Source of the DNA: Myxococcota bacterium
GTDB lineage: Bacteria > Myxococcota_A > UBA796 > SXON01
Reading direction: 5' to 3'
Assembly: GCA_040386535.1 (NCBI GenBank)
Contig: JAZKFH010000011.1
Span: forward strand, 1-64,000
Length of the DNA: 64,000 nucleotides
A model generated the notes under the pieces. The model saw only the letters and a program-made list of their open reading frames with translations. It did no database searches and was not told the DNA's origin. The position numbers and the translations under genes were made by a program. Shown here piece by piece: positions 1-13,598 of the stretch (within the stretch, counting starts at the first letter, position 1; each line of letters opens with the position of its first letter).

Positions 1-982
1 TACCGGTGGGCAGGACTGGGATTGGAGTGGGTGGAATTGATGGGACGGGACACGGCGCCTGCGCGCGCGCGTCGGCCACGGTGGGGAGGGGCCCTAGCAG
101 CGCGTCTTCCGAGGTCGTGGGGCCCGTCCGCGGCGCGGCCTGCGCGGCGGTCGCGTCGCGCAACGTGGGCGGCCCACCGGCGTAGGTGCTTGTGTTCGTG
201 GCGCGGGCCTCCGACCGCCCGCTCGCGGTCCCTTCTGAGGGGGCCGGGGCATCCGCGGCCCCAGTCGACCCGGCTGTCTCCGCCGCGTGCCCCGCGGTCC
301 CCGTCTCCTCCGATGGCGTCTCGGGACCCCGCTCGAGCACGGCGCCGATCTCCCGCTCCGCGGCGTAGGCCTCGCGCTCCGTCGAGTCCGTGGGGCTCGA
401 CACCCCGTGTTTCCCCGAGAGCCTGCCCTCGTCGTCCTGTTTGACGTGCGTAAGCTCATGGACGAGGAGGCGGTCCCCCGTGCGGGTCCCCGGGGCGAAC
501 TGCCCCTGACCGAAGTAGATGTCGCTCCCGACGGTGAAAGCGTAGGCGTCGATCGCGGCGGCGGCGTGCGCAGCAGGGGCATCCGAATGGATGCGAACGT
601 GCTCGAAGTCGTGCCCGAACGCGGCCTCCATGCGCGCCCGCACGCCGTCCGGGAGCGCGTTGCCGGTGCCCGCCGGGAGGTGGAACCCGCCGCCGCCGCT
701 CGCCCGCACCTGCCGGAGGATCGCCAACATCACGGAGTTCGGCGCCTCGCCCGGCACGGTCGGCGCGATCCCCGCCGCCTGCCCCATCACCGCGGCGCGC
801 ACGACGGGCCCGAACCCGCCCACCTGCGCCCCGGCGAGCGCGGCGCGGACCACCGAGTTCCCGACCGAGCGCTGTAGGGCCGCGACGGCGCTCGGCGTCT
901 CCGAGGCCGACGGGACGGCGCTGGCGCGCCGGAGGGCCTCCGCGACGCGTGTTTTTACTTGCCGCGCGAGTGTCGTGCCCAT
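1..982 (-). CDS. DUF4157 (eCIS core domain) protein, N-terminal part; runs off the left window edge
   Basis: Absent from the ORF track because there is no stop in the window. Manual translation from ATG 982: MGTTLARQVKTRVAEALRR...LQRSVGN...GNALPDGVRARMEAAFGHDFEHVRIHSD...AIDAYAFTVGSDIYFGQGQFAPGTRTGDRLLVHELTHVKQ, a typical DUF4157 with HExxH. The frame is open to position 1. Confidence 0.92.
   Translation of the reverse strand, partial: MGTTLARQVKTRVAEALRRASAVPSASETPSAVAALQRSVGNSVVRAALAGAQVGGFGPVVRAAVMGQAAGIAPTVPGEAPNSVMLAILRQVRASGGGGFHLPAGTGNALPDGVRARMEAAFGHDFEHVRIHSDAPAAHAAAAIDAYAFTVGSDIYFGQGQFAPGTRTGDRLLVHELTHVKQDDEGRLSGKHGVSSPTDSTEREAYAAEREIGAVLERGPETPSEETGTAGHAAETAGSTGAADAPAPSEGTASGRSEARATNTSTYAGGPPTLRDATAAQAAPRTGPTTSEDALLGPLPTVADARAQAPCPVPSIPPTPIPVLPTG
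679..952. repeat. Direct repeat copy 1 (~274 bp; pairs with 5903-6176)
   Basis: Manual alignment gives about 19 mismatches in 274 nt with no gaps; encodes the N-terminus of the DUF4157 protein. Confidence 0.92.
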
Positions 983-1318
983 TGGTCATCCCGACGGCTG
1001 CGTCAGGATAGCGACTCTACTATATGTGATCAACAAGCACCATCAGCGGCTTGTATTTTCGCAGGCGGGATGGACGGACGCGTGGCGCCTCCCTCGCCCG
1101 TGCGGCCGCGCGGTGCGGTCGGCCGCGGCCTCGTTCGGCATGACTGCGAGGGCCATTGATCTGTCACCGCGGCGCCGTGAGGCTCCGCCACCCAGAGCGC
1201 CTCTCAGAAGGGAACGAGGGGGCCAGCCGGAGGCGAGCACCCGCGCGTATTCACGGGCGGTCTGCTCGTGGTCCACCGTTCCGAGCCGCGGCATGCCGTC
1301 CCAGACGGGACAGGGCGG

Positions 1319-1690
1319 CTACCGACCCCACGCCCGACCGCACCCGCGTCGGGGGCATTTCCCCGCGCCACCAAGGCCGCCGACCGCGTCGAGCAGGGTG
1401 CGGGCATCCGGGCCCACACGAACCCGCACGCCGCCGAGGGACGTGCCGAAGCCCGCCTCGAGCGCCGCCTGGTGTGGGAGGGATGCGGCCGCACCGAGGT
1501 GGGTCATGTCCTCGGCCTCGAGCCCCTCCGTTGTCGTCCGCGATCGCTTCCTGGCAGGACGCTTCGCGTCGGCCGCAGCCCCGCGTTCCCCGGCACGTTC
1601 GGGGCCGCCCGCGGCGCTGGCGCACGCGCTCATCCGGTGCCCTTCCACGAGCTTCCTGCCTGCGCTCTCGGCCCTGACCGCCCCATACAC
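1319..1690 (-). pseudogene. Probable degenerate DUF4157 gene fragment
   Basis: LPHQAALEAGFGTSLGGVRVRVGPDARTLLDAVG resembles the start of a DUF4157 domain, but the frame ends before any HExxH. Confidence 0.45.
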
Positions 1691-1967
1691 AACTCGCGCG
1701 ACGGCCGCAGGATGGGTGCAGCGTCGGTGAAGGTCAAGCGCTCCGATCCCCGCCTCGTCGGCAGTTGCATGCGTACGAGCAGCGTCATCCGCAGCAATGT
1801 TTCACGCGATGGCCCCGGCGCGGAGCGTCGGCAGAGAACGGTGGTGAGAGCGCGTGCCCGTGCACCGTGGTTCCGGACGCCCGGGAGAACATGGCCGCTC
1901 TGTTGAGGTTCGAATCATCGGGGTGAGCACGGCATTAATTGAATAGTGGCGCCTTCTCGAGCCGACG

Positions 1968-2876
1968 GTGCCAGGAACGAGCTACCTGATCCGATGCATG
2001 ATACTTGATCCGATGCCAGCAGCACACCTGTACTCGGGACTCGTCTGGGAGGACGCCACGGAAGGTTGCGCTGCGTACCTTGCCGAAAAGGACGCCCACA
2101 CCGCTGTGCTCTTCGTCCACGGCTTCTACGGCCACCCCACCAAAACCTGGGGTGACTTCGTGGCCGCCGCAGACAACGATGGTCGGTTCGACGCCGCTGA
2201 CCTCTTCTTCTGGGGCTACTCCTCCCGAAGTGAGGTGGGTCAAACCGCCAACCGCTTGCACCGGCTGCTGGCCCGGCTCGCCGAAGGTGATCCCAGCCTG
2301 GAATGCGGTCCACCAGTAGAGCATCATCTCCTCCGCGCCCTGAACCGGCAGCCAGGGCGGCCGTATGGAAGGGTCGTTCTGGCCGCCCACTCGCTGGGTG
2401 GTCTGGTTGCGCGGAAGGTACTGCTCCATGCTGCAACTCTGAATCCCCCGCCCGATTGGATGCAGCGGGTTCGGATGACGCTATTTGCGCCGGCCCAGTG
2501 CGGCTCTGTCAATCTCGCCAACGTGACGAAGCTCACCGAGAGCTGGTGGGCCCTCGTCCCGGTGCTGCGTGATGTGGTCAGCCCTCCTCTGCGAGCCCTC
2601 GCCGCCGGGAGTCCTGAGTTGCTGCAACTCCGGGCCGACGTGAGGGCTGCGGTGGGTGCCCGCAAGGCCGGAGCGCTGCCGGCGGAGCCGTTGGTACCGA
2701 GTCGCTTGGTTTGGGGCAAGGAGGACGCCGTCGTGGTGAACGACGTCTTGGATGGGGACCCCGTAGCAATAGAAGAGGACCCCGCCAACGGAAACGGCTT
2801 CCTCAACCACGGGGCCGTGTGTAAGCCCGGCGGCATCTACCTCAACGCCCTGGAGCACGTGTATGCCGCCTTCTGA
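1968..2876 (+). CDS. Alpha/beta-fold hydrolase (esterase/lipase-like); start may be ATG 1998 or 2013
   Basis: VLFVHGFYG oxyanion motif, AHSLGG nucleophile elbow, late Asp (EDAVV) and His (NHGAVCKP). Confidence 0.85.
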   Translation: MPGTSYLIRCMILDPMPAAHLYSGLVWEDATEGCAAYLAEKDAHTAVLFVHGFYGHPTKTWGDFVAAADNDGRFDAADLFFWGYSSRSEVGQTANRLHRLLARLAEGDPSLECGPPVEHHLLRALNRQPGRPYGRVVLAAHSLGGLVARKVLLHAATLNPPPDWMQRVRMTLFAPAQCGSVNLANVTKLTESWWALVPVLRDVVSPPLRALAAGSPELLQLRADVRAAVGARKAGALPAEPLVPSRLVWGKEDAVVVNDVLDGDPVAIEEDPANGNGFLNHGAVCKPGGIYLNALEHVYAAF

Positions 2877-4071
2877 GGCAGCCATCGTTGCTGCGTTTCG
2901 CTCTAGGTTCCTCCCGGAGCGTCTTGTGGAGCCAACGATAGCGGAGTGGCGGACTCGCCAGTGCGCCGGGACCCTCGACCGGGACCTTCGCCACCATCGG
3001 GACGGACCGGTCCAGGACACGAGTCTCGTTAACTTTCGGGCACGCATTGATCTCGTCCTGGGCGGACTAGAATTAGGGTGGGTGGGTGTCGTCGCGCGGG
3101 CGATACCCCTTTCGGCATTAAAGGACTTCGTCGACTTTCTCAACGAACCATCAACTCTCGCGTACTACAGCACGCGCTACCCAGTTCCGCTGCCCCCGCG
3201 CCTCCGTGACGCCCTCGCGGACCTCAGCGGACTCCCTGTGGTGCCCCTCCCGCTCGCCCTCAACCCTGCTCTGGAGGAGTTTTTTTCGCTGTCGCAACGG
3301 GTGCGTACGGACGAGGACGTGGGGGTCTTCCTCGACATGGTGGACGACATATTCCTGGACGATGTGGGGTGGCCAGCGCTCCGGCAAGTCTTGGACTCGG
3401 CGGCCAAGGGCGTGGACTGCGACGGACCCCGCCCGATCGAGGCGCTGATGTTCGAGCGGGAGGGCGAGGAGACAACTCTCGGCTGCGCGCTCCGCGGTGC
3501 AGTGACGTATCTCGGCATCCTCCGTGAACTCGATAGCCTACTTGAGAACGCGCGAATGGCGGATCCAATATTGGCGGAGGCGATGTGGGGCCAACACGCA
3601 TATTGGCTGAAGCAACTTCAGGGGAAAACAGACTTGGTGTCGTTCGCGAACGCCCTTGCCCCGACCATTGGGTGGGTAGAGCTTCTTGCGCGACTCGCCG
3701 CGGACCCGCGCTTGACCCATGAGCGTCGAACGCGGCAGCGGACGAGCCCGAGTGTGCTGGAGATCCGGGGCCTCAAGCTACAAGAGGCACACGACTGGAA
3801 AAAGCGGCTACCCCCGGAGGCCCGCGCCGCGCTGCGCCCGGGCGCGGCTACGGGCAGCGCCAGGACATTCGGGCAACCTTCTGCGCTTGTTCTCACCCTA
3901 ACCCTCGTGCCTCCCGCGATCGACGCCCTGGTCGACATTTGCGCGGGGAAGGAGATTGAGCTTGAGATCTTTCGCCACGGCCCCCATCCCGGGCCCTCCT
4001 CGGTCCGGTACCAAGGAGACCATCCTGCCACGCCGGAGAACGTCCGTGCGTTCCTCGACGATCTCGAATAG
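2863..4071 (+). CDS. Hypothetical protein, possibly two domains
   Basis: 402-aa ORF with natural composition, overlapping the upstream gene by 14 nt; lower GC. Confidence 0.75.
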   Translation: MPPSEAAIVAAFRSRFLPERLVEPTIAEWRTRQCAGTLDRDLRHHRDGPVQDTSLVNFRARIDLVLGGLELGWVGVVARAIPLSALKDFVDFLNEPSTLAYYSTRYPVPLPPRLRDALADLSGLPVVPLPLALNPALEEFFSLSQRVRTDEDVGVFLDMVDDIFLDDVGWPALRQVLDSAAKGVDCDGPRPIEALMFEREGEETTLGCALRGAVTYLGILRELDSLLENARMADPILAEAMWGQHAYWLKQLQGKTDLVSFANALAPTIGWVELLARLAADPRLTHERRTRQRTSPSVLEIRGLKLQEAHDWKKRLPPEARAALRPGAATGSARTFGQPSALVLTLTLVPPAIDALVDICAGKEIELEIFRHGPHPGPSSVRYQGDHPATPENVRAFLDDLE

Positions 4072-4082
4072 CCTGGACTGAC

Positions 4083-5708
4083 ATGGCACCGAGCGCCTGG
4101 ACAGACCTCATTGCGAATCGGGTAACTATTCCGACACTCACCGAGGAGGTGGCTCGGGAGATTCTCATGTGGCGTCGGATACCGGACGAGGTGCTGCATT
4201 CTTGGCTCCACGAGGGGCAGCACCATCTCAGCTTCAGCTCCTACGTGATTGGTGCGGCGGTCGGTCGGGCGACCCGAGCCCTTGAACGGGTCCGCCACGG
4301 GGGGCAGGGTATCGCTGGTAGCAGGGACACTTTTCTCCCCGTCATGTTGGACGTGGCGGCGCTCGAGATCGCAACCATGGCACTCCGGCCGTTGAGTGAG
4401 GGACTCGCACTCTTCGCTGAGCATCATTTGTATCTTGGTCCGGGGGACCTCTCCACCAGCCTGACTCTGCTTCTTCTCCAGTTGGAGTTTCTTCGGTCGG
4501 AGTCTGGCTCGGGGCGGTCCCCAGCGGACACGCTCCGGGCGCGGGTTGAATCCGCAAATGCGGGGATGCGAAGGGCGCGGCTATCCGAGCGCGCGATCGA
4601 GGAAGCAACGGGGTTGATGTTTCGACCACTCGACCTTAGTGATGGCGGGTATTTGCCAGGGTACCTGTGGTTGCTTGCGGCGAGACGGAGACTCATCGAC
4701 TGCGGTGTGACCGCAGCGGCCGACCCGGAGACATTTCTCCACGTAGTTCGGGAGTACTTCTTCTCGGATTATGGAATGGTTGACGCGCTCACGCAGCCCG
4801 TCGCATCGCCGCTTGAACTCGCGGACAGGGTGGTTGACCATCTTACTGCTCGGCTCGCGAGCTTCCCCGAGACTACCCAAGCTGACTGGGAGGTAGCCGT
4901 GGTAGAGCTCCTCTCAAAGAAGGACGCCTTTTTCCAACCCTTCGGATCTCAGGCGCACCTTGGGGTTTCGTCGGCGGTTCAGGCGAGGGCCGAGGCAGCA
5001 TTGAATTCTCTCGACGCCGCGCTAAAGGGTTCCGATGCCATGCTCCTGTCCTTCCTGCTTCGGCAGGTGTTCGTGGGCGGCAGCATGGCCGTAGGCTGCT
5101 CGAACATGGGTGCTGATATGGTAGTGAGCATCGGTTCCATCGGTACCATTAAGTGCAGACCGCTCGATACGGCAACCCCCTGCGTCGGCGCCGGGTCCCT
5201 GACCCTGTACGTGCTCTATGGCTCCGGCAACCATGGGGCCCTGTACGCTGCGATCAAGGTCCGTGGCGAGCTCCAAGCAGTCCTGAACCTCGCGACAGCG
5301 GGGAGCGTGCCAGAAGAAGTACTAAACCTGATTGCTTGTCACGCCCTCGTCGGCGCCACCGACTCTGGGCTCACGACCTTCGTCGAGGGCATCAACAAAC
5401 TACTTTCGGAGGTGCCGGAGTATTCGAATGCCATCGGTAGTGAGCTTGCCGCGCGCGTCGTCGCGGCACACCTTAACTCGCCGGTATTGGCGACGTTTCA
5501 GTTGAGCGGCGCGAATCTCGAGCAGCCGTTTGACCATCTCCCACTGGACCTACTCAGTGGCGCAACATTGGTCGGGCTCTGTCGGTCGGCGGGCCTTGCA
5601 GGGGCGGAGATTGGCGCGCGACTTCGGGCGCTGAATCTCCCGCCGCTGGAGGAAGTTGACGCGCGAGCCTCAGAGCACGGTCTGCTCCGACTGATCACCC
5701 TCGAGTAG
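4083..5708 (+). CDS. Hypothetical protein with N-terminal gluzincin-like Zn-metallopeptidase motif
   Basis: WLHEGQHH (HExxH) followed ~60 aa later by LSEGLALFAE; GGA RBS, 11 nt after the previous stop. Confidence 0.75.
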   Translation: MAPSAWTDLIANRVTIPTLTEEVAREILMWRRIPDEVLHSWLHEGQHHLSFSSYVIGAAVGRATRALERVRHGGQGIAGSRDTFLPVMLDVAALEIATMALRPLSEGLALFAEHHLYLGPGDLSTSLTLLLLQLEFLRSESGSGRSPADTLRARVESANAGMRRARLSERAIEEATGLMFRPLDLSDGGYLPGYLWLLAARRRLIDCGVTAAADPETFLHVVREYFFSDYGMVDALTQPVASPLELADRVVDHLTARLASFPETTQADWEVAVVELLSKKDAFFQPFGSQAHLGVSSAVQARAEAALNSLDAALKGSDAMLLSFLLRQVFVGGSMAVGCSNMGADMVVSIGSIGTIKCRPLDTATPCVGAGSLTLYVLYGSGNHGALYAAIKVRGELQAVLNLATAGSVPEEVLNLIACHALVGATDSGLTTFVEGINKLLSEVPEYSNAIGSELAARVVAAHLNSPVLATFQLSGANLEQPFDHLPLDLLSGATLVGLCRSAGLAGAEIGARLRALNLPPLEEVDARASEHGLLRLITLE

Positions 5709-5819
5709 TCTCCGAGTGCGCTACCGTTCCCCTGCTGGAGGATAGGAGACATCACCCGCTGTAGGCTCCCACCCAGCGGGAGCACGCAGCCGACGGAGGA
5801 GGCGGAGCCCGTGGAGAAG

Positions 5820-5909
5820 CCGGCGCCCCCGTTGAAGCCGGCGCCCATCGCGACGCCGGCGCCCGTCGCGAAGGTGCCGCCCGTCGCGAAGGCGGCGCCC
5901 CCGGTGGAA
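5820..5909. repeat. Degenerate 18-nt tandem repeat, ~5 units (ccggcgcccgtcgcgaag-like)
   Basis: Units read PAPPLK/PAPIAT/PAPVAK/VPPVAK/AAPPVE on the + strand and abut repeat copy 2. Confidence 0.6.
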
Positions 5910-6176
5910 CCCCCCGCCGCCGCTCGTCCGCGCCTGCCGGAGGATCGCCAACATCGCTGAATTCGGCGCCTCCCTCGCAACGATCGGCGCGATCCCCGCC
6001 GCCTGCCCCATCACCGCGGCGCGCACGACGGGCCCGAACCCGTCCACCTGCGCCCCGGCGAGCGCGGCGCGGATCACGGAGTTCCCGACCGAGCGCTGTA
6101 GGGTCGCGACGGCGCTCGGGGCCTCCGAGGCCGACGGGACGGCGCTGGCGCGCCGGAGGGCCTCCGTGACGCGCGT
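5903..6176 (-). pseudogene. Truncated duplicate of the DUF4157 gene 5' region (direct repeat copy 2)
   Basis: Encodes RVTEALRRASAVPS...LQRSVGNSVIRAAL...MLAILRQARTSGGGGFH, then diverges; lacks its own start codon and the DUF4157 domain. Confidence 0.8.
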
Positions 6177-6235: not shown

Positions 6236-7369
<1,134 letters not shown>

Positions 7370-7543
7370 TCAGGACCTCCTGACCCACTGTGTCCGACGC
7401 CCTGCCGCCGCAGAATCGGTATGATCCTTACAAGATCGTTCAGCTGAGCCGAACAGTCGTACCGGCGTGACGCGGGTGGGCGTCGGAATTGCATCGGGCC
7501 TCGTGCGGCATGGAATCTTCCGTCCCAATCGAGCCGGGTGTTG

Positions 7544-8185
7544 CTACGCGAGGCGCACGGTAGTCCCGAGATGGCCGTCCGCGACCCGATACCGCCCGGT
7601 GAACGTCGCGCCGGATGGGTAGGGCGGAGCGTGGCGGAGGAGCGTGACGCGAAACGTGCTATCGCCAGCGAGCAGCAGCGTCACGTCGCTGAAGTCGAGA
7701 TAGTGTCGGACGCGGGGGTACACCGCCTTGTAGAAGGCTTCTTTCCCCGAGAAGACGAGACGGTCGGCGACATGTGCCAAGGCGGGGGGGAGCGCCGCGA
7801 ACGCGGCGTGCTCGCGTGGGGAAACGACCAGAAGGGCGACGCCCTCCGGCAAGGGTTCGGCGGGCTCGACATCGATCCCGATGCTGCCGCCGACGTTGGT
7901 GACCGCGACCGCGCACCGGGTCGCGCAGTGGGTGATCGACCCGACCACACCGTCGGGCCAGAGCGGGGCTCCGGCGGCGTCGTTGAGGAGCGGGCCAGGC
8001 CGGACCCCCAATCGTCCGAGGAGGGCCCGCGCGAGCAGGCGACCCGCGGCGTGCTCGCGGCGGCGCTTGTCGACGGCCCCTTCGACGGCAGCCTGCTCCG
8101 CGGAGTGGAGCGTGGCGGGGTCGGCGTCCCGAGGATCCATCTCGGCCACCAGCACGGCGTCGGGGAGGATTGGACGGAGGAGCAT
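7544..8185 (-). CDS. 4'-phosphopantetheinyl transferase (EntD/Npt type)
   Basis: KRRREHAAGR, PLWPDGVVGSITH, IGIDVE and FSGKEAFYKA motifs; divergent from the NRPS operon. Confidence 0.95.
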   Translation of the reverse strand: MLLRPILPDAVLVAEMDPRDADPATLHSAEQAAVEGAVDKRRREHAAGRLLARALLGRLGVRPGPLLNDAAGAPLWPDGVVGSITHCATRCAVAVTNVGGSIGIDVEPAEPLPEGVALLVVSPREHAAFAALPPALAHVADRLVFSGKEAFYKAVYPRVRHYLDFSDVTLLLAGDSTFRVTLLRHAPPYPSGATFTGRYRVADGHLGTTVRLA

Positions 8186-8399
8186 TGGGGGCCGGCCGCG
8201 TCACACACGCGGGAGGAGGTGCCAACGGGAGCGACGGGGGCGGGTGTGTTCGGGCCGTAGTCGGTCCACGTCGCGCCCGCCACGAGCACCAGGGCGGAGG
8301 GTGGGGGCGCGACGGGACAACGTGCCGGCGGCCACGCTCGTCGGCGCCGTTCCCTTGGCGTGCTTGCTCGTTCGGAGCCGCCCAGCCATACTAAAGCGC

Positions 8400-11300
8400 A
8401 TGTCGTTCGAGGGCACCCTCCCGACGCTCGTGGAGCTCGTGCGGGCGAGGGCCAGACACGATCCGCATCGGGTGGTGCTCGTCCCGCTCGTCGATGGCGA
8501 GACGGCCGGCGAGCCCCTCACCTACCAGCAGCTCGACCGGTGCGCGAGCGCCGTCGCCGCCGACCTGGCGCAGCGCTGCCCTCCGGGCTCGCGGGCGCTC
8601 CTCGTCCACCGGAACGGCAGCGACTTCATCATCGCGCTGTTCGCCTGCTTCTATGCCGATGTGATCGCCGTTCCCGCCTACCCGCCCCGCGCCCGGCACG
8701 CGCGTGCACGGCTGAACGCAATCATCAAGGACGCTGAGCCCGCGGTCGTCCTCACGGACGTACCGGCAGACGTGGCGGACCTCCCCCTCCGCCCGGTCGG
8801 TCGGAGTCGAGCGAGCCCACCCTCCGATTCCGACGCGCCGGCCTTGCTCCAGTACACCTCCGGCTCCACTGCCCAACCGAAGGGCGTCTGCGTGACACAC
8901 CGGAACCTGGTCCACAACCAGGCGGCCATCGCGCGTGCGTTCGGACACGACGAAGCGTCGAGCATCGTGAGCTGGCTGCCGGTCTACCACGACATGGGGC
9001 TGAGCAACCTGCTGCAGGCCGTGTACGTCGGGATCCCGTGCTTCCTGATGGCGCCGGCCCACTTTCTCCAGCGGCCCGCGCGTTGGCTGGAGGCGATCGC
9101 GCGGCATCGGGCGACCACCAGCGGAGGGCCCGACTTCGCGTACGAGCTGTGTTCGCGGCGGATCACCCCGGAGCAGCGTCGGCGCCTCGATCTGGGATGC
9201 TGGCGCGTCGCTTACGACGGGTCCGAGCCCGTTCGTGCCCAGACCCTGCAACACTTCGTGGAGACCTTCGGCCCCCAGGGGTTCCGCGCGTCCGCGTTTC
9301 GCCCGTGCTACGGCCTCGCCGAGGCCACGTTGTTGGTCGCCGCGGGCGCCCCGGATTGTGTGGCGCGGATCGAGCGCTTCGAAACCCTGGCGCTGACCGA
9401 GCATCGCGCGGTGGTGGCGGCGCCGGGGCTCGGGCAGGCGCTCGTGAGCTGCGGAAGCGCGCGCGAATGTGAGGTGATCATCGCGGACCCCGACGGCGGG
9501 CGGGCGCTGCCGACCGGGCGCGTCGGGGAGATCTGGGTCCAGGGGCCGAGCGTCGCGGCCGGCTACTGGCAGCGGCCCGAAGAGACGGCGACGGCGTTCG
9601 GCGCCCGCGTGCCTGGACACCCAGGAACCTTCTTGCGAACGGGGGACCTCGGCTTCGTGACCGATGGGGAGCTCTACGTCGCCGGGCGCCTCAAGGATCT
9701 GATCGTCGCTCGCGGCCAGAACCACCACCCGGCGGACATCGAGCGCACCGCGCAGGACACGGACCCGTCGTTGCCCGTGGGTGGGGGCGCGGCGTTCGGG
9801 CTCGACGTGGCCGGCGAGGAGCGTGTCGTCGTGGTGCACGAGGTGGGGCGCGCCACCCTCGACGCCACGGCGCTGACCGGCATCATCCGCCGGCGCATCC
9901 TCGAGGAGCACGGGCTCCAGGTGGCCGCGGTGGTGCTCATCCGACCCGGCACCTTGCCCCGGACGACCAGCGGCAAAGTGCGCCGCGCCGCCTGCCGCGA
10001 CCAATTCGTCGCGGGGACGCTCGTGGTCGTTTCGGAGTGGCGCCCGCCCTCCGAGTCCGTGGCGCCCGACAGCCACCCGCCAGCGCCGACGCCCGACGAG
10101 GTCCTGGATTGGTTCGCCACGACACTCGCCGATCGGCTGGGCGTCCCCGCGGAGACGCTGGATGTGGACCAGCCGCTCGGGCGGTACGCCGTCGACTCCC
10201 TCGCCGCGCTGGATCTCGCCCACCGCGTCACGACCCGCTTCGGGGTGGTGCTCCCGATCGCCACGATTTTCGACCAGTCCAGCATCTCGTCGCTCGCCGC
10301 CGCGGTGTGCCTGACGCTAGAAGCCGCGCCCCCTCGGCCCGATCCAGCGCTCGTGGCACCACCGGTCCACGCCGACGGGGTGCTCACGCGCGGCCAGCGC
10401 GCCATCTGGATCCAGGAGCAGCTGGGAGCGGCCCGCACCGCCAACCTCGTCGCCCGCGCGGCCCGCATCCACGGGCCGCTGGATCCGGAGGCCCTTCGGC
10501 GTGCGTTGCGTCGGCTGGTCGCGCGGCACCCGGCGCTCAGGACCACGTTCGAGGTGGGACCGGACGGTCCCGTGTCACGGACCCATCCGCATCTGACGCT
10601 CGATCTGAAGCTGGACTACGACGCGGGCCCCATCGCCGAGCGCCTGCGCGATCTGGCGCGGCGCCCGTTCGATCTGCAGCAAGGCCCGCTCTTGCGTGTG
10701 CACATGCTTCACGACGAATCTGCCGCCGGCCGCGGAAGCTGGGTCCTGCTCCTGGTCGTCCACCACATCGTGGTGGACTTCTGGTCGTTCGAGGTCATCG
10801 TGGCGGATCTCGCGGCGCTGTACGCGTCAGAACACCGGGGCGCCCCCGCGGTGCTGCGGCCGCCGGGCGCCTGCGCGGCCACCCTCCCTCTCTCCGCTGG
10901 CGAGGCCTCGGCGAAGTATTGGGAGGAGCGGCTCGCGGGGGCGCCGCACGCGAGCGCTCCGCCCGCAGACCTGCTCGCGCCGCGCACGCGCACGCACCAC
11001 GCGGAAGCGGTCCCCCTCGTGCTGGACGAGGCGTTGACCCGACAGTTGGACGTGTTCGCGGCGACGGAGCGGGCCACGCCCTACATGATCCTGCTCGCCT
11101 CGTTGGCCGTGGTGCTCCACCACAACAGCGGCGCGGAGGACGTTGTCGTGGGATCTCCCACGGTCGCGCGTTCCGGGGCCGCGCTCGGGGGCGTCGTCGG
11201 CTGCTTCCTCGACGCGGTCGCGATCCGCGGAGATCTCGCCGGCGATCCATCCTTTCGGCGCGTGGTCCAACGGGTCCGGGAGGCGGTGGTGGGCGCGCTC

Positions 11301-13598
11301 GAGCACCGGGCCGATCCCCACGACCACGTCGGGGAGCACGCTCGGCCCGGGCCGTTCGACGTGCTTCTGGTGTGGCTCGGGGCGCACCACGACGTTGGAA
11401 AGGCGCTCGTCCCGTTTGCGCTGCAGGAGGCCGGCGCGTGCCTGGAGCTCGGTGGGCTCCGGCTCGAGGCGCTGCCCGTCCCATCCCCGAGCGCGCTGTT
11501 CGCCCTGGAGCTGGTGGCGGGCCGGGTCGGTCACGAGGTGCACGGCTCGCTCGCCTACGCCACCGAGCTGTACGCCGCGTCGACCGCGACGCGCCTCGTG
11601 GCGCACCTGTCCCGGGTGCTCCGCACCGGCCTCGATTCGCCCGATCGTCCCCTCTCGGAGCTCTCGCCGGTGGACGAGGCGGAGCAGCGTGTGCTGCTCC
11701 ATCTCGGCGGAAATCCAGAGGCGATCGTCCGGCCCGAGGGGTTGTACGACCGCGTCGCCGCCTGGGCTACCGCCACACCCGATGCGATAGCGCTCACGTT
11801 CGACGGCGCCACACTCACCTATGCCGCGCTGCACGACCGGAGCCGCGCGCTCGCCCATCGCCTCCAACGGCTCGGTGTGTTGCCCGGCCGGCCCATCGCG
11901 GTCCTGCTGGAGGACGGGCCCCTGCAGGTGACCGCCCTCTTGGCCGTCCTGGCGGCGGGTGCGTGCTTCGTTTGTGTAGACATCGGCTACCCGGCGCTCC
12001 GGCTCGAGCGGATCCTGGACGACCTGCGGCCCTCGCACGTCCTCACGTCCGCCACGTGGGCGAATCGGCCCGCGCGGGGTGATGAGCGCACCTGGGTGGT
12101 CATCGGGGAGGAGGACGGGGGGGGCCCGGAGGACGGGCCTCTGCGTGGCGGACGGGGCACGGACGCGGCCTATGTGGTGTACACCTCCGGGTCGGGTGGG
12201 TCTCCAAAGGGGATCGTCCAGTCGCATGCCGCCTTCAACCAGTTTCTGGATTGGCAGATCCAACGCTTCCACATGGGGCCGGGGCAACGGATCGCCCAGT
12301 GGGCAACACTCACCTACGATGCGGCCTACTGCGAGATCTTCGGCGGCCTCTGCTCCGGAGCGACCGTCTGCCTGGCCGTCCCCGCGATGCGCCAGGATCC
12401 GTCGGCGCTCCTCGCGTGGGTCGAGCGCGAGGCGATCACCCTGCTCCAGATGGTGCCGAGCTTCTGGCGTGTCGTGTGGGCGCAGCTCGCCGACCTGCCA
12501 CCCGGCGCGCGGGACCCGCTGCGGAGCCTCGAGTGGCTGCTCCTCGCCGGTGAGGCGCTCCCGGTCGATCTGGCCCGCTCCTGGCTGGCTCGGTATCCGG
12601 CGCACCCCGCCCTCTTCAACCTGTACGGGCCCTCGGAGACAGTGTTGGCGACCTGCTACCCGGTCGAGGCGGTCGGGGAGGCGACCCGCTCGATTCCCAT
12701 CGGCCGCCCGATCGACGGTCGACGGATTTTGCTCCTCACGCCCCACGGCCGCCCCTGCCCGAGAGGGGCGATCGGCGAGATCTACGTGCAGAGCCGCCAC
12801 CTCACAATTGGCTACCACGGGCGGCCGGAGGAGACCGCACGGGCGTGGTTGCCCGCGCCCGGCGCCAGATCCGAGGACGATCGGATGTACCGCACGGGTG
12901 ACCTCGCGCGGTGGACCCCGCAGGGCGAGCTCGAGTTCCACGGACGAATCGACGGCCAGCTGAAGATGCGCGGCGTTCGGGTGGAGCTCGAGGAGGTCGC
13001 CGCCGTGCTCCGCGCCTGCCCCCTGGTGGAGGACGCCGTCGTCGTCGCCGACGAGGATGGCGGCGGGGATCCGCGCATCCTCGCCTACGTGGCGGGGCCA
13101 GCGGCGATCGACCTCGCAGCGTTGCGCGAGGCGGCGCGGCGGATGCTGCCCCCACAGGCCGTTCCGACCGCCTTCGTGCGCCTGGACGCCCTCCCGCGGA
13201 CCCGCACCGGCAAGATCGACCGTCGCGCCCTGCCGCCGCCCGCTCCCGCCGAGCGCTCCGGCCCTGCGGCCTCCTCGGCGCCGTGGACCGACCGGGAGAA
13301 GCTCGTCGCGGCGGTGTGGCAGGAGGTGCTCGGGGTCCAGGCCGTGGGCGTGGACGACCGCTTCATGGACCTCGGCGGGCACTCGCTGAGCGCGATGCAG
13401 GTGGTCGGTCGGCTGCGGCGCCGCGGCTGGGAGCTCCCGCTCGCCAGCGTGTTCGAAGCGCCCAGCGTGGCGGGCATGGCCGCGCGGATCCAGGCAGTCG
13501 AGGGGAGCGTGCCCGACCTCGCACAGATGGTGGACGACATCGAGGCGCTCTCGGACGACGAGGTCGAAGCGCTCCTTTCCGACCCGGAGGGTACATGA
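8400..13598 (+). CDS. NRPS loading protein FAAL-ACP-C-A-T
   Basis: FAAL (LQYTSGSTAQPKGV, SWLPVYHDMGL, CYGLAEATL), ACP (VDSL), C (HHIVVDFWS), A (YTSGSGGSPKG, YGPSET, YRTGDL), T (GGHSL). Start placed at ATG 8400. Confidence 0.95.
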   Translation: MSFEGTLPTLVELVRARARHDPHRVVLVPLVDGETAGEPLTYQQLDRCASAVAADLAQRCPPGSRALLVHRNGSDFIIALFACFYADVIAVPAYPPRARHARARLNAIIKDAEPAVVLTDVPADVADLPLRPVGRSRASPPSDSDAPALLQYTSGSTAQPKGVCVTHRNLVHNQAAIARAFGHDEASSIVSWLPVYHDMGLSNLLQAVYVGIPCFLMAPAHFLQRPARWLEAIARHRATTSGGPDFAYELCSRRITPEQRRRLDLGCWRVAYDGSEPVRAQTLQHFVETFGPQGFRASAFRPCYGLAEATLLVAAGAPDCVARIERFETLALTEHRAVVAAPGLGQALVSCGSARECEVIIADPDGGRALPTGRVGEIWVQGPSVAAGYWQRPEETATAFGARVPGHPGTFLRTGDLGFVTDGELYVAGRLKDLIVARGQNHHPADIERTAQDTDPSLPVGGGAAFGLDVAGEERVVVVHEVGRATLDATALTGIIRRRILEEHGLQVAAVVLIRPGTLPRTTSGKVRRAACRDQFVAGTLVVVSEWRPPSESVAPDSHPPAPTPDEVLDWFATTLADRLGVPAETLDVDQPLGRYAVDSLAALDLAHRVTTRFGVVLPIATIFDQSSISSLAAAVCLTLEAAPPRPDPALVAPPVHADGVLTRGQRAIWIQEQLGAARTANLVARAARIHGPLDPEALRRALRRLVARHPALRTTFEVGPDGPVSRTHPHLTLDLKLDYDAGPIAERLRDLARRPFDLQQGPLLRVHMLHDESAAGRGSWVLLLVVHHIVVDFWSFEVIVADLAALYASEHRGAPAVLRPPGACAATLPLSAGEASAKYWEERLAGAPHASAPPADLLAPRTRTHHAEAVPLVLDEALTRQLDVFAATERATPYMILLASLAVVLHHNSGAEDVVVGSPTVARSGAALGGVVGCFLDAVAIRGDLAGDPSFRRVVQRVREAVVGALEHRADPHDHVGEHARPGPFDVLLVWLGAHHDVGKALVPFALQEAGACLELGGLRLEALPVPSPSALFALELVAGRVGHEVHGSLAYATELYAASTATRLVAHLSRVLRTGLDSPDRPLSELSPVDEAEQRVLLHLGGNPEAIVRPEGLYDRVAAWATATPDAIALTFDGATLTYAALHDRSRALAHRLQRLGVLPGRPIAVLLEDGPLQVTALLAVLAAGACFVCVDIGYPALRLERILDDLRPSHVLTSATWANRPARGDERTWVVIGEEDGGGPEDGPLRGGRGTDAAYVVYTSGSGGSPKGIVQSHAAFNQFLDWQIQRFHMGPGQRIAQWATLTYDAAYCEIFGGLCSGATVCLAVPAMRQDPSALLAWVEREAITLLQMVPSFWRVVWAQLADLPPGARDPLRSLEWLLLAGEALPVDLARSWLARYPAHPALFNLYGPSETVLATCYPVEAVGEATRSIPIGRPIDGRRILLLTPHGRPCPRGAIGEIYVQSRHLTIGYHGRPEETARAWLPAPGARSEDDRMYRTGDLARWTPQGELEFHGRIDGQLKMRGVRVELEEVAAVLRACPLVEDAVVVADEDGGGDPRILAYVAGPAAIDLAALREAARRMLPPQAVPTAFVRLDALPRTRTGKIDRRALPPPAPAERSGPAASSAPWTDREKLVAAVWQEVLGVQAVGVDDRFMDLGGHSLSAMQVVGRLRRRGWELPLASVFEAPSVAGMAARIQAVEGSVPDLAQMVDDIEALSDDEVEALLSDPEGT

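Follow-up and report, generated by a model that had tools for sequence, protein, structure and literature searches.

A predicted zinc metallopeptidase and a small EACC1-like partner form a rare, mobile gene pair that may act as a protease-gated suicide module

The proteases of bacterial gasdermin and Pepco modules are of cysteine or serine type. In the closest described system a small protein, EACC1, is encoded beside its protease; according to Kaur et al. 2020 (PMC7159879), that neighboring gene codes for a caspase or a cyclic nucleotide monophosphate (cNMP) cyclase. Evans et al. (10.1101/2025.11.14.688446) report caspase cleavage of EACC1 at Asp49; the resulting 7.1-kDa C-terminal fragment is toxic and makes liposomes leak. 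Here we analyze three genes, A, B and C, at 1968-5708 of a 64,000-nucleotide stretch of DNA from a Myxococcota bacterium (assembly GCA_040386535.1, contig JAZKFH010000011.1, positions 1 to 64,000 of the forward strand; hereafter, the window). A preliminary description made from the sequence had proposed that all three form a candidate defense or conflict system in which a protease possibly activates a hydrolase. Our studies have shown that the conserved unit is instead a rare, mobile pair consisting of a protease (gene C) and a small partner (the C-terminal domain of gene B).

The protease and partner families are tightly and reciprocally linked. A GTDB scan, which was a sample searched with one motif pattern, yielded 52 protease loci from eight phyla. 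The typical partner is a protein of 120-140 amino acids whose gene abuts that of the protease. Model-free clustering of neighboring open reading frames (ORFs) found it in 38 loci, and with profiles the count rose to 40 and finally to 42 of 52, with the partner of locus L050 counted at an E-value of 0.0016 only. After nine Nocardia loci were collapsed to one and three Streptomyces loci to one, the partner was adjacent in 32 of 42. The reciprocal test was performed on 401 genomes of one phylum, where both families occurred in the same two genomes, side by side, one of these being the seed genome. A co-divergence analysis of 28 loci gave a Mantel rho of 0.22, which was reached in 46 of 5000 permutations (kinship uncorrected), and the nearest neighbors of protease and partner agreed in 14 of the 28. 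The protease tree, a quick tree from which 14 redundant or truncated loci were left out, mixes phyla. No regulator or tailoring enzyme was found to be conserved near the pair.

Gene A (1968-2876, plus strand) is a 302-amino-acid ORF; the database call begins at 2013 and gives 287 amino acids. The serine hydrolase triad that had been read in it was confirmed as S142, D253 and H281, which are invariant in 5/5 aligned relatives, with S142 in the motif AHSLGG. Weak Pfam matches to Abhydrolase_6, PGAP1 and DUF676 also indicate an alpha/beta hydrolase. The proposal of a conserved three-gene system was not supported: A homologues were present in 0/52 protease loci, and the protease or partner in 0/10 hydrolase-related loci, three of which are close full-length relatives (one on a 1-kb contig). 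For the hydrolase, then, homologues do not co-occur with the pair. With no counterpart of A in those loci and no detectable relative of residues 1-290 of B, the triplet is a local assembly, and a protease-activated hydrolase would at best be an improbable one-off. Judged from these comparisons of sequence, gene A is a local accessory gene and not part of the conserved pair. Two close relatives of A (L083:2060-2968 and L090:622-1599) are each followed by an overlapping orphan ORF of ~300 amino acids, with a TIR gene close by as well in L090. These orphan ORFs have no significant similarity to B (at least 431 of 1000 shuffles scored as high) or to each other; a likeness to the N-terminus of B that was noted by eye failed shuffling and was dropped.

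Gene C (4083-5708, plus strand; a 541-amino-acid ORF) is predicted, from sequence and modeling, to encode a zinc endopeptidase with candidate sensor domains. An exhaustive HMMER search followed by 50% clustering gave 458 family representatives, mostly of 550-600 amino acids. The signature HEGQH...EGLALFAE, which had already been noticed, held up: its HExxH motif (HEGQH; H43, E44 and H47; 4209-4223, plus strand) and the putative third ligand E106 (4398-4400, plus strand) are invariant. In an alignment of the window's C with 119 near full-length sequences out of 149 relatives listed, these four residues along with P103, R166, L191, G193 and G476 were identical in 120/120. Conservation of N12 in 112/120 supports the ATG start at 4083. 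An AlphaFold2 model was obtained with a predicted local distance difference test (pLDDT) score of 84.5 and a predicted template modeling score of 0.89, and it places both the HExxH motif and E106 on helices. Peptidase families that we take to be gluzincins recur among the top structural matches to residues 1-268, with Z-scores of 4.1-5.8 (DUF885-like 3o0y, 5.8; M32, 4.9; ACE, 4.4; M30, 4.3). Two further regions are candidate sensors: a central oligonucleotide/oligosaccharide-binding (OB)-like beta domain (amino acids ~329-402, structural matches over 330-395) and a C-terminal helix-turn-helix (HTH)-like domain (amino acids ~480-540, HTH-type DNA-binding matches over 480-540).

The gene C family previously had no model in the libraries scanned. 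No model in Pfam, PADLOC, NCBIfam or PHROG matches the window's C, and neither did any of 21 family members match Pfam (0/21) nor any of 14 protease homologues match PADLOC (0/14). Foldseek searches of C against the PDB and viral structures gave no match at an E-value of 0.001, and PDB sequence searches and a single-sequence viral scan gave none. The ESM Atlas holds C in unnamed clusters only, and word-index searches recovered only the window's own B and C. Hsp70 matches from the structure search were rejected (template modeling score of about 0.1).

Gene B (2863-4071, plus strand) is a 402-amino-acid ORF in which an orphan domain is fused in frame to the partner. The partner domain (amino acids 293-402; 3739-4071, plus strand) is EACC1-like, and we predict that it is both the substrate of C and a latent pore former. 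It was the top match among 73,806 six-frame genome segments (E-value 0.07) to a partner hidden Markov model built without the window's sequence, and it matches the partner of L005 by phmmer with an E-value of 4e-5. The loop F336-G337-Q338-P339 (3868-3879, plus strand) corresponds to the motif (F/H/Y)-G-(E/D)-(P/L) that was counted across 31 partner sequences, with a predicted cut at G337/Q338 (within one residue). Directly after this cut is a hydrophobic helix of 19 residues (amino acids 341-359; 3883-3939, plus strand; Kyte-Doolittle 1.85). The N-terminal ~290 amino acids (2863-3738, plus strand) are predicted to be all-helical. This domain was seen in no other locus examined and was not found in 400 genomes of the phylum; a 57-residue match was rejected as it contains three stops. 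The single-sequence model of B was poor (pLDDT 48.8) and matched generic helical bundles only, and the ESM Atlas gave no usable match for B. A TTG codon in frame at 3712 is a possible former start.

Sequence profile and layout together show that the partner family resembles EACC1. With 14 strong EACC1 members collected from genomes as the comparison set, profile-profile alignment (hhalign) gave 88.8% with an E-value of 2.5e-6; trimmed alignments without the window's row gave 80%, as compared with 1.5-1.8% for reversed controls. The Pfam model PF19953 (EACC1) matched 8 of the 31 partner members at E-values up to 1, the best being 0.0011. By hydropathy and secondary structure, the partner has one hydrophobic helix between alpha/beta extensions, as does EACC1, and helix hydropathy is at least 1.6 in 29/31 partner members and 12/14 EACC1 proteins. 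Measured by eye, the distance from the cut to the conserved Trp is 24 residues in EACC1 and 22 residues from the G/E position in the partner family.

A model of the complex between C and B293-402 supports a substrate-like pose, in which the loop of B would sit on the catalytic residues of C. This model, which used the window's own sequences as first rows, scored 0.76, and the best of three controls scored 0.00; the score mark was reached by 116 of 157 solved pairs and 2 of 215 mismatched pairs, a calibration that is roughly valid for our own alignments. Contact agreement among runs was at least 87% and partner pLDDT at least 73. The best-defined contacts are those of F336, G337 and Q338 of B with H43, E44, H47 and E106 of C, with an expected error of 1.1-1.4 Å. 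A cut after G337 would release a fragment of 65 residues, which equals the length of the EACC1 fragment (114 minus 49).

Based on these observations, we propose, with confidence somewhat above even, that the pair is a metalloprotease-gated, EACC1-like suicide module that is probably anti-phage. The most probable part, which we take as quite likely, is that C binds and cleaves its cognate partner. That the partner is a membrane-damaging death effector is fairly probable, and an anti-phage role is an evenly balanced call. In this scheme, C would stay inactive until its C-terminal part, OB-like or HTH-like, receives a signal of infection or stress; C would then cut B at about G337/Q338 and shed an autoinhibitory N-terminal piece, and the freed 65-residue fragment, hydrophobic helix first, would oligomerize in the membrane and kill the cell (abortive infection). 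Hydrolase A and the N-terminal domain of B would be local additions to a horizontally acquired insert.

Several observations weigh against this proposal. The similarity of the partner to EACC1 is remote and lies below the Pfam cut-off of 23.6 bits, and the window's own B domain has no PF19953 match. The window copy is divergent, with the longest branch of the tree (2.97, tied with L051); its loop carries Gln where 28/31 partners have Glu or Asp, and its B domain is without the conserved Trp or basic patch. The resemblance of C to gluzincin-type peptidases is weak (best Z-score 5.8, root-mean-square deviation 4.2, 158 residues aligned). Ten of 52 protease loci have no EACC1-like partner: three have another partner, one has a subtilase, four (L029, L044, L045 and L052) are truncated, contain gaps or lie at the edge of a contig, and in two none was found. 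No match was found in 50,697 isolated phage records. Linkage to defense islands is weak, with few credible PADLOC matches among 233 neighboring ORFs of 42 loci, where ORFs were called by our own heuristic and matches were counted without a background control.

A loop that binds an active site could belong to an inhibitor or equally to a substrate. By a toxin-antitoxin logic, C itself could be the toxin, a protease with a host or phage protein as its target; the partner would be an inhibitor or sensor anchored in the membrane, and its loop would block the site until a trigger removes it. The role first proposed for EACC1, by Kaur et al. (PMC7159879), was to sense at the membrane and activate its protease. 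Also noted on this side are loci L013 and L022, with apparently full-length proteases and no partner found in the locus or elsewhere in the genome; yet partner-less proteases argue against a protease that would need an inhibitor to be tolerated. Moreover, in the EACC1 system that was tested, the small protein is the cleaved toxin, and the position of the predicted cut site and the fragment size agree with EACC1. We consider the inhibitor unlikely. A non-killing role, in which C processes the small protein into a signaling or membrane peptide as part of a precursor-peptidase pair or stress switch, would suit the mostly ordinary metabolic and transport genes around the pair, and pairs of a zincin and a small precursor exist (PMC7159879). 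The very patchy, cross-phylum distribution (2/401 genomes), the copies on plasmids and in a phage region, and the lack of a conserved regulator or tailoring enzyme nearby make this slightly less credible still.

The remaining alternatives concern the window's own copy. Tight coupling, a shared low guanine-plus-cytosine (GC) content and the in-frame fusion of B suggest that the three genes could act together: C would cleave either A or B, and the serine hydrolase would be turned on as a second effector by the N-terminal domain freed from B or through the cut in A. Protease-activated alpha/beta hydrolases have been published (10.1101/2025.11.14.688446), and 2/3 close hydrolase relatives are also followed by ~300-amino-acid orphan ORFs. 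Against this stand the lack of co-occurrence (0/52 and 0/10) and the shuffling result for those ORFs, which are not detectably similar to B. In addition, A has no Arg-Gly dipeptide, the published cut motif, and looks unlike LcHydrolase by eye. Such joint action is the least probable of these readings. It is also conceivable, if improbable, that the family is a real module and the copy here has decayed, with B an accidental read-through fusion of an unrelated gene to a degenerate partner, in a locus that has ceased to function. The long branch, the loss of the Trp and of the Glu/Asp, a fusion seen in no other locus, the truncated DUF4157 fragments nearby and the possible old start at 3712 all favor decay; the intact catalytic residues of C and A, the absence of frameshifts and a complex score obtained with the window's own sequences speak against it. 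The suicide module remains the reading that we prefer.

Some loci carry other partners. In L020 (5478-6077), L039 (307-780) and L049 (7171-7821), a second type of partner is encoded directly upstream of the protease; it has the motif R-W/Y-V-I-R/K-N-E/Q-D and paired hydrophobic helices, with no Pfam match. The proteases of these loci form one clade in two phyla (Shimodaira-Hasegawa-like approximate likelihood ratio test, 97), which suggests an effector swap. In L015, where no EACC1-like partner is present, a subtilase (Peptidase_S8) gene (6663-7907) ends 4 nucleotides before the protease homologue, and this arrangement is possibly a protease cascade. A wider view would make the protease family an immunity hub that gates and swaps death effectors, and would have a single cut in B yield both a pore fragment and an orphan domain that activates the hydrolase. 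Its parts would be an EACC1-like pore in most loci, the hydrophobic-hairpin partner in L020, L039 and L049, and perhaps the subtilase of L015; we regard this view as doubtful. A conserved third gene of ~190 amino acids, which belongs to no known family, precedes the pair in L006 (6904-7515), L014 (6982-7569) and L038 (7010-7555), in one clade spanning three phyla. In L051 (1649-9928), the pair lies directly downstream of a 1964-amino-acid RHS/YD-repeat protein with SpvB-like domains.

The pair is also found on mobile elements. In L099, a phage head-tail region with major head and tape-measure genes contains it on the opposite strand. Seven plasmid records have the protease; the partner was present in 3/4 of those examined, and one copy is beside integrases. 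The credible PADLOC neighbors are mREase_II in L014, PDC-S65 in L023, PDC-S17 in L040 and a LeoA-like protein in L003; 'mad3' matches were set aside as ABC-type ATPases or transporters. The neighbors with a conflict flavor include SIR2_2-like (L004:9828-10682), PDC-S17 (L040:6502-7068), caspase (L022:9642-11654), CHAT-NTPase-TPR (L052:8643-12062) and Hsp70-like (L012:2206-4035) proteins. As for the defense or conflict system first proposed, a protease-gated, conflict-type reading is supported; the conserved trio and the protease-activated hydrolase are not.

Much of what had been said of the locus itself was verified. The three genes are tightly coupled, with A and B overlapping by 14 nucleotides and a gap of 11 nucleotides between B and C. 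The operon is of lower GC content, at 64.8% for A, 64.2% for B and 61.8% for C, or 63.3% for the trio compared with 71.5% for the genome; of 2355 equally long windows across the genome, only 8 have a GC content this low. The AT-rich upstream tract is at 1934-1945, where 11/12 bases are A or T. A sigma-70 consensus promoter search found none (shuffle mean 0.5), and promoter and terminator counts showed no excess above shuffles. Horizontal acquisition, which had also been suggested, is supported by the low GC content, by the mixing of phyla in the protease tree, and by a search of 60 related genomes that did not find C.

The island is flanked on both sides by a direct repeat of 274 nucleotides, which the preliminary description did not mention; its two copies are 93% identical. 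The left copy (679-952, minus strand) corresponds to the 5' portion of an eCIS_core (DUF4157) gene that begins at 982 and runs off the contig end (2-982, minus strand), and the right copy (5903-6176, minus strand), at the other edge of the insert, is a truncated duplicate of the same 5' segment. A third DUF4157-type remnant, judged by eye, is at 1319-1690 (minus strand). This locus of DUF4157 fragments looks like a recombination hotspot. No integrase ORF was seen between the two repeats, and a joint of 767 to 5842 was rejected as an excision trace because it had only 20 letters on one side. A contig from a public run matches 913-6013 with no differences; because it spans this region unchanged, no assembly error is visible behind the fusion in gene B, although the run is possibly the window's own source and not independent. 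Genomes of the same genus showed no syntenic empty site, and the WD40 flank was present in 1/5 in another context. This flank is a putative lipoprotein gene (6236-7369, minus strand) with a DT-repeat linker and a WD40 match; its relative in genome G006 is 67% identical and in a different context. The region that adjoins the island (7544-13598) contains a phosphopantetheinyl transferase gene and then, by inspection, the start of a large ORF resembling nonribosomal peptide synthetases.

If the proposal is true, a zinc metallopeptidase would be a third catalytic class in protease-effector immunity, and a function would be assigned to two families without a model in the libraries scanned. Sensing of the trigger by the OB-like or HTH-like domains would likewise be new biology. 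Likely cell-suicide defense of this type has so far been described with cysteine proteases, and in the papers searched EACC1 is paired with caspase-type proteases. No metalloprotease-EACC1 pairing was found in open full-text literature, in which EACC1 architecture figures or source tables could list one; none appears in the passages available from 10.1101/2025.11.14.688446, PMC8195603, 10.64898/2026.10.19.760177 and 10.1101/2025.01.08.631966. The accessible text of DefensePredictor (10.1101/2025.01.08.631726) has no passage on it, and two files of the Kaur source data gave no matches. The earlier remark that no named system has this layout is consistent with PADLOC-DB 2.0.0, in which none of the three window proteins matches a system model.

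In comparison with known systems, C shares with gluzincins (M32 carboxypeptidase, DUF885, ACE, M30, M36, M1 and M61) the HExxH motif and a downstream Glu on a later helix, but it carries extra OB-like and HTH-like domains, and structural matches are weak (Z-scores up to 5.8). The LcHydrolase-LcCaspase system (10.1101/2025.11.14.688446) likewise has a serine hydrolase of ~300 amino acids near a protease gene; in contrast, A is unlinked to the protease family elsewhere and has no Arg-Gly sites, and the protease here is not a caspase. With bacterial gasdermin and Pepco modules, the pair would share the logic of proteolysis-gated pore formation, a parallel to gasdermin-type cell death; no link to them in sequence or fold was found, nor was one tested for. 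The closest likeness is to EACC1-caspase. In both, alpha/beta elements flank the one hydrophobic helix of a small partner, whose gene mostly precedes that of the protease on the 5' side, with a cut (predicted here) just before the helix that leaves ~65 residues, and both have a patchy distribution rich in Actinomycetota. However, the protease here is an HExxH...E metallopeptidase rather than a caspase or cNMP cyclase, and its family has a near-constant length (about 570 amino acids) without variable sensor fusions. The loop motif is G-E-P rather than a caspase Asp site, some clades have the pair in reverse gene order, and in the window the partner is fused to an orphan domain. The pair therefore falls outside the EACC1-caspase system, although its mode of action is most likely similar.

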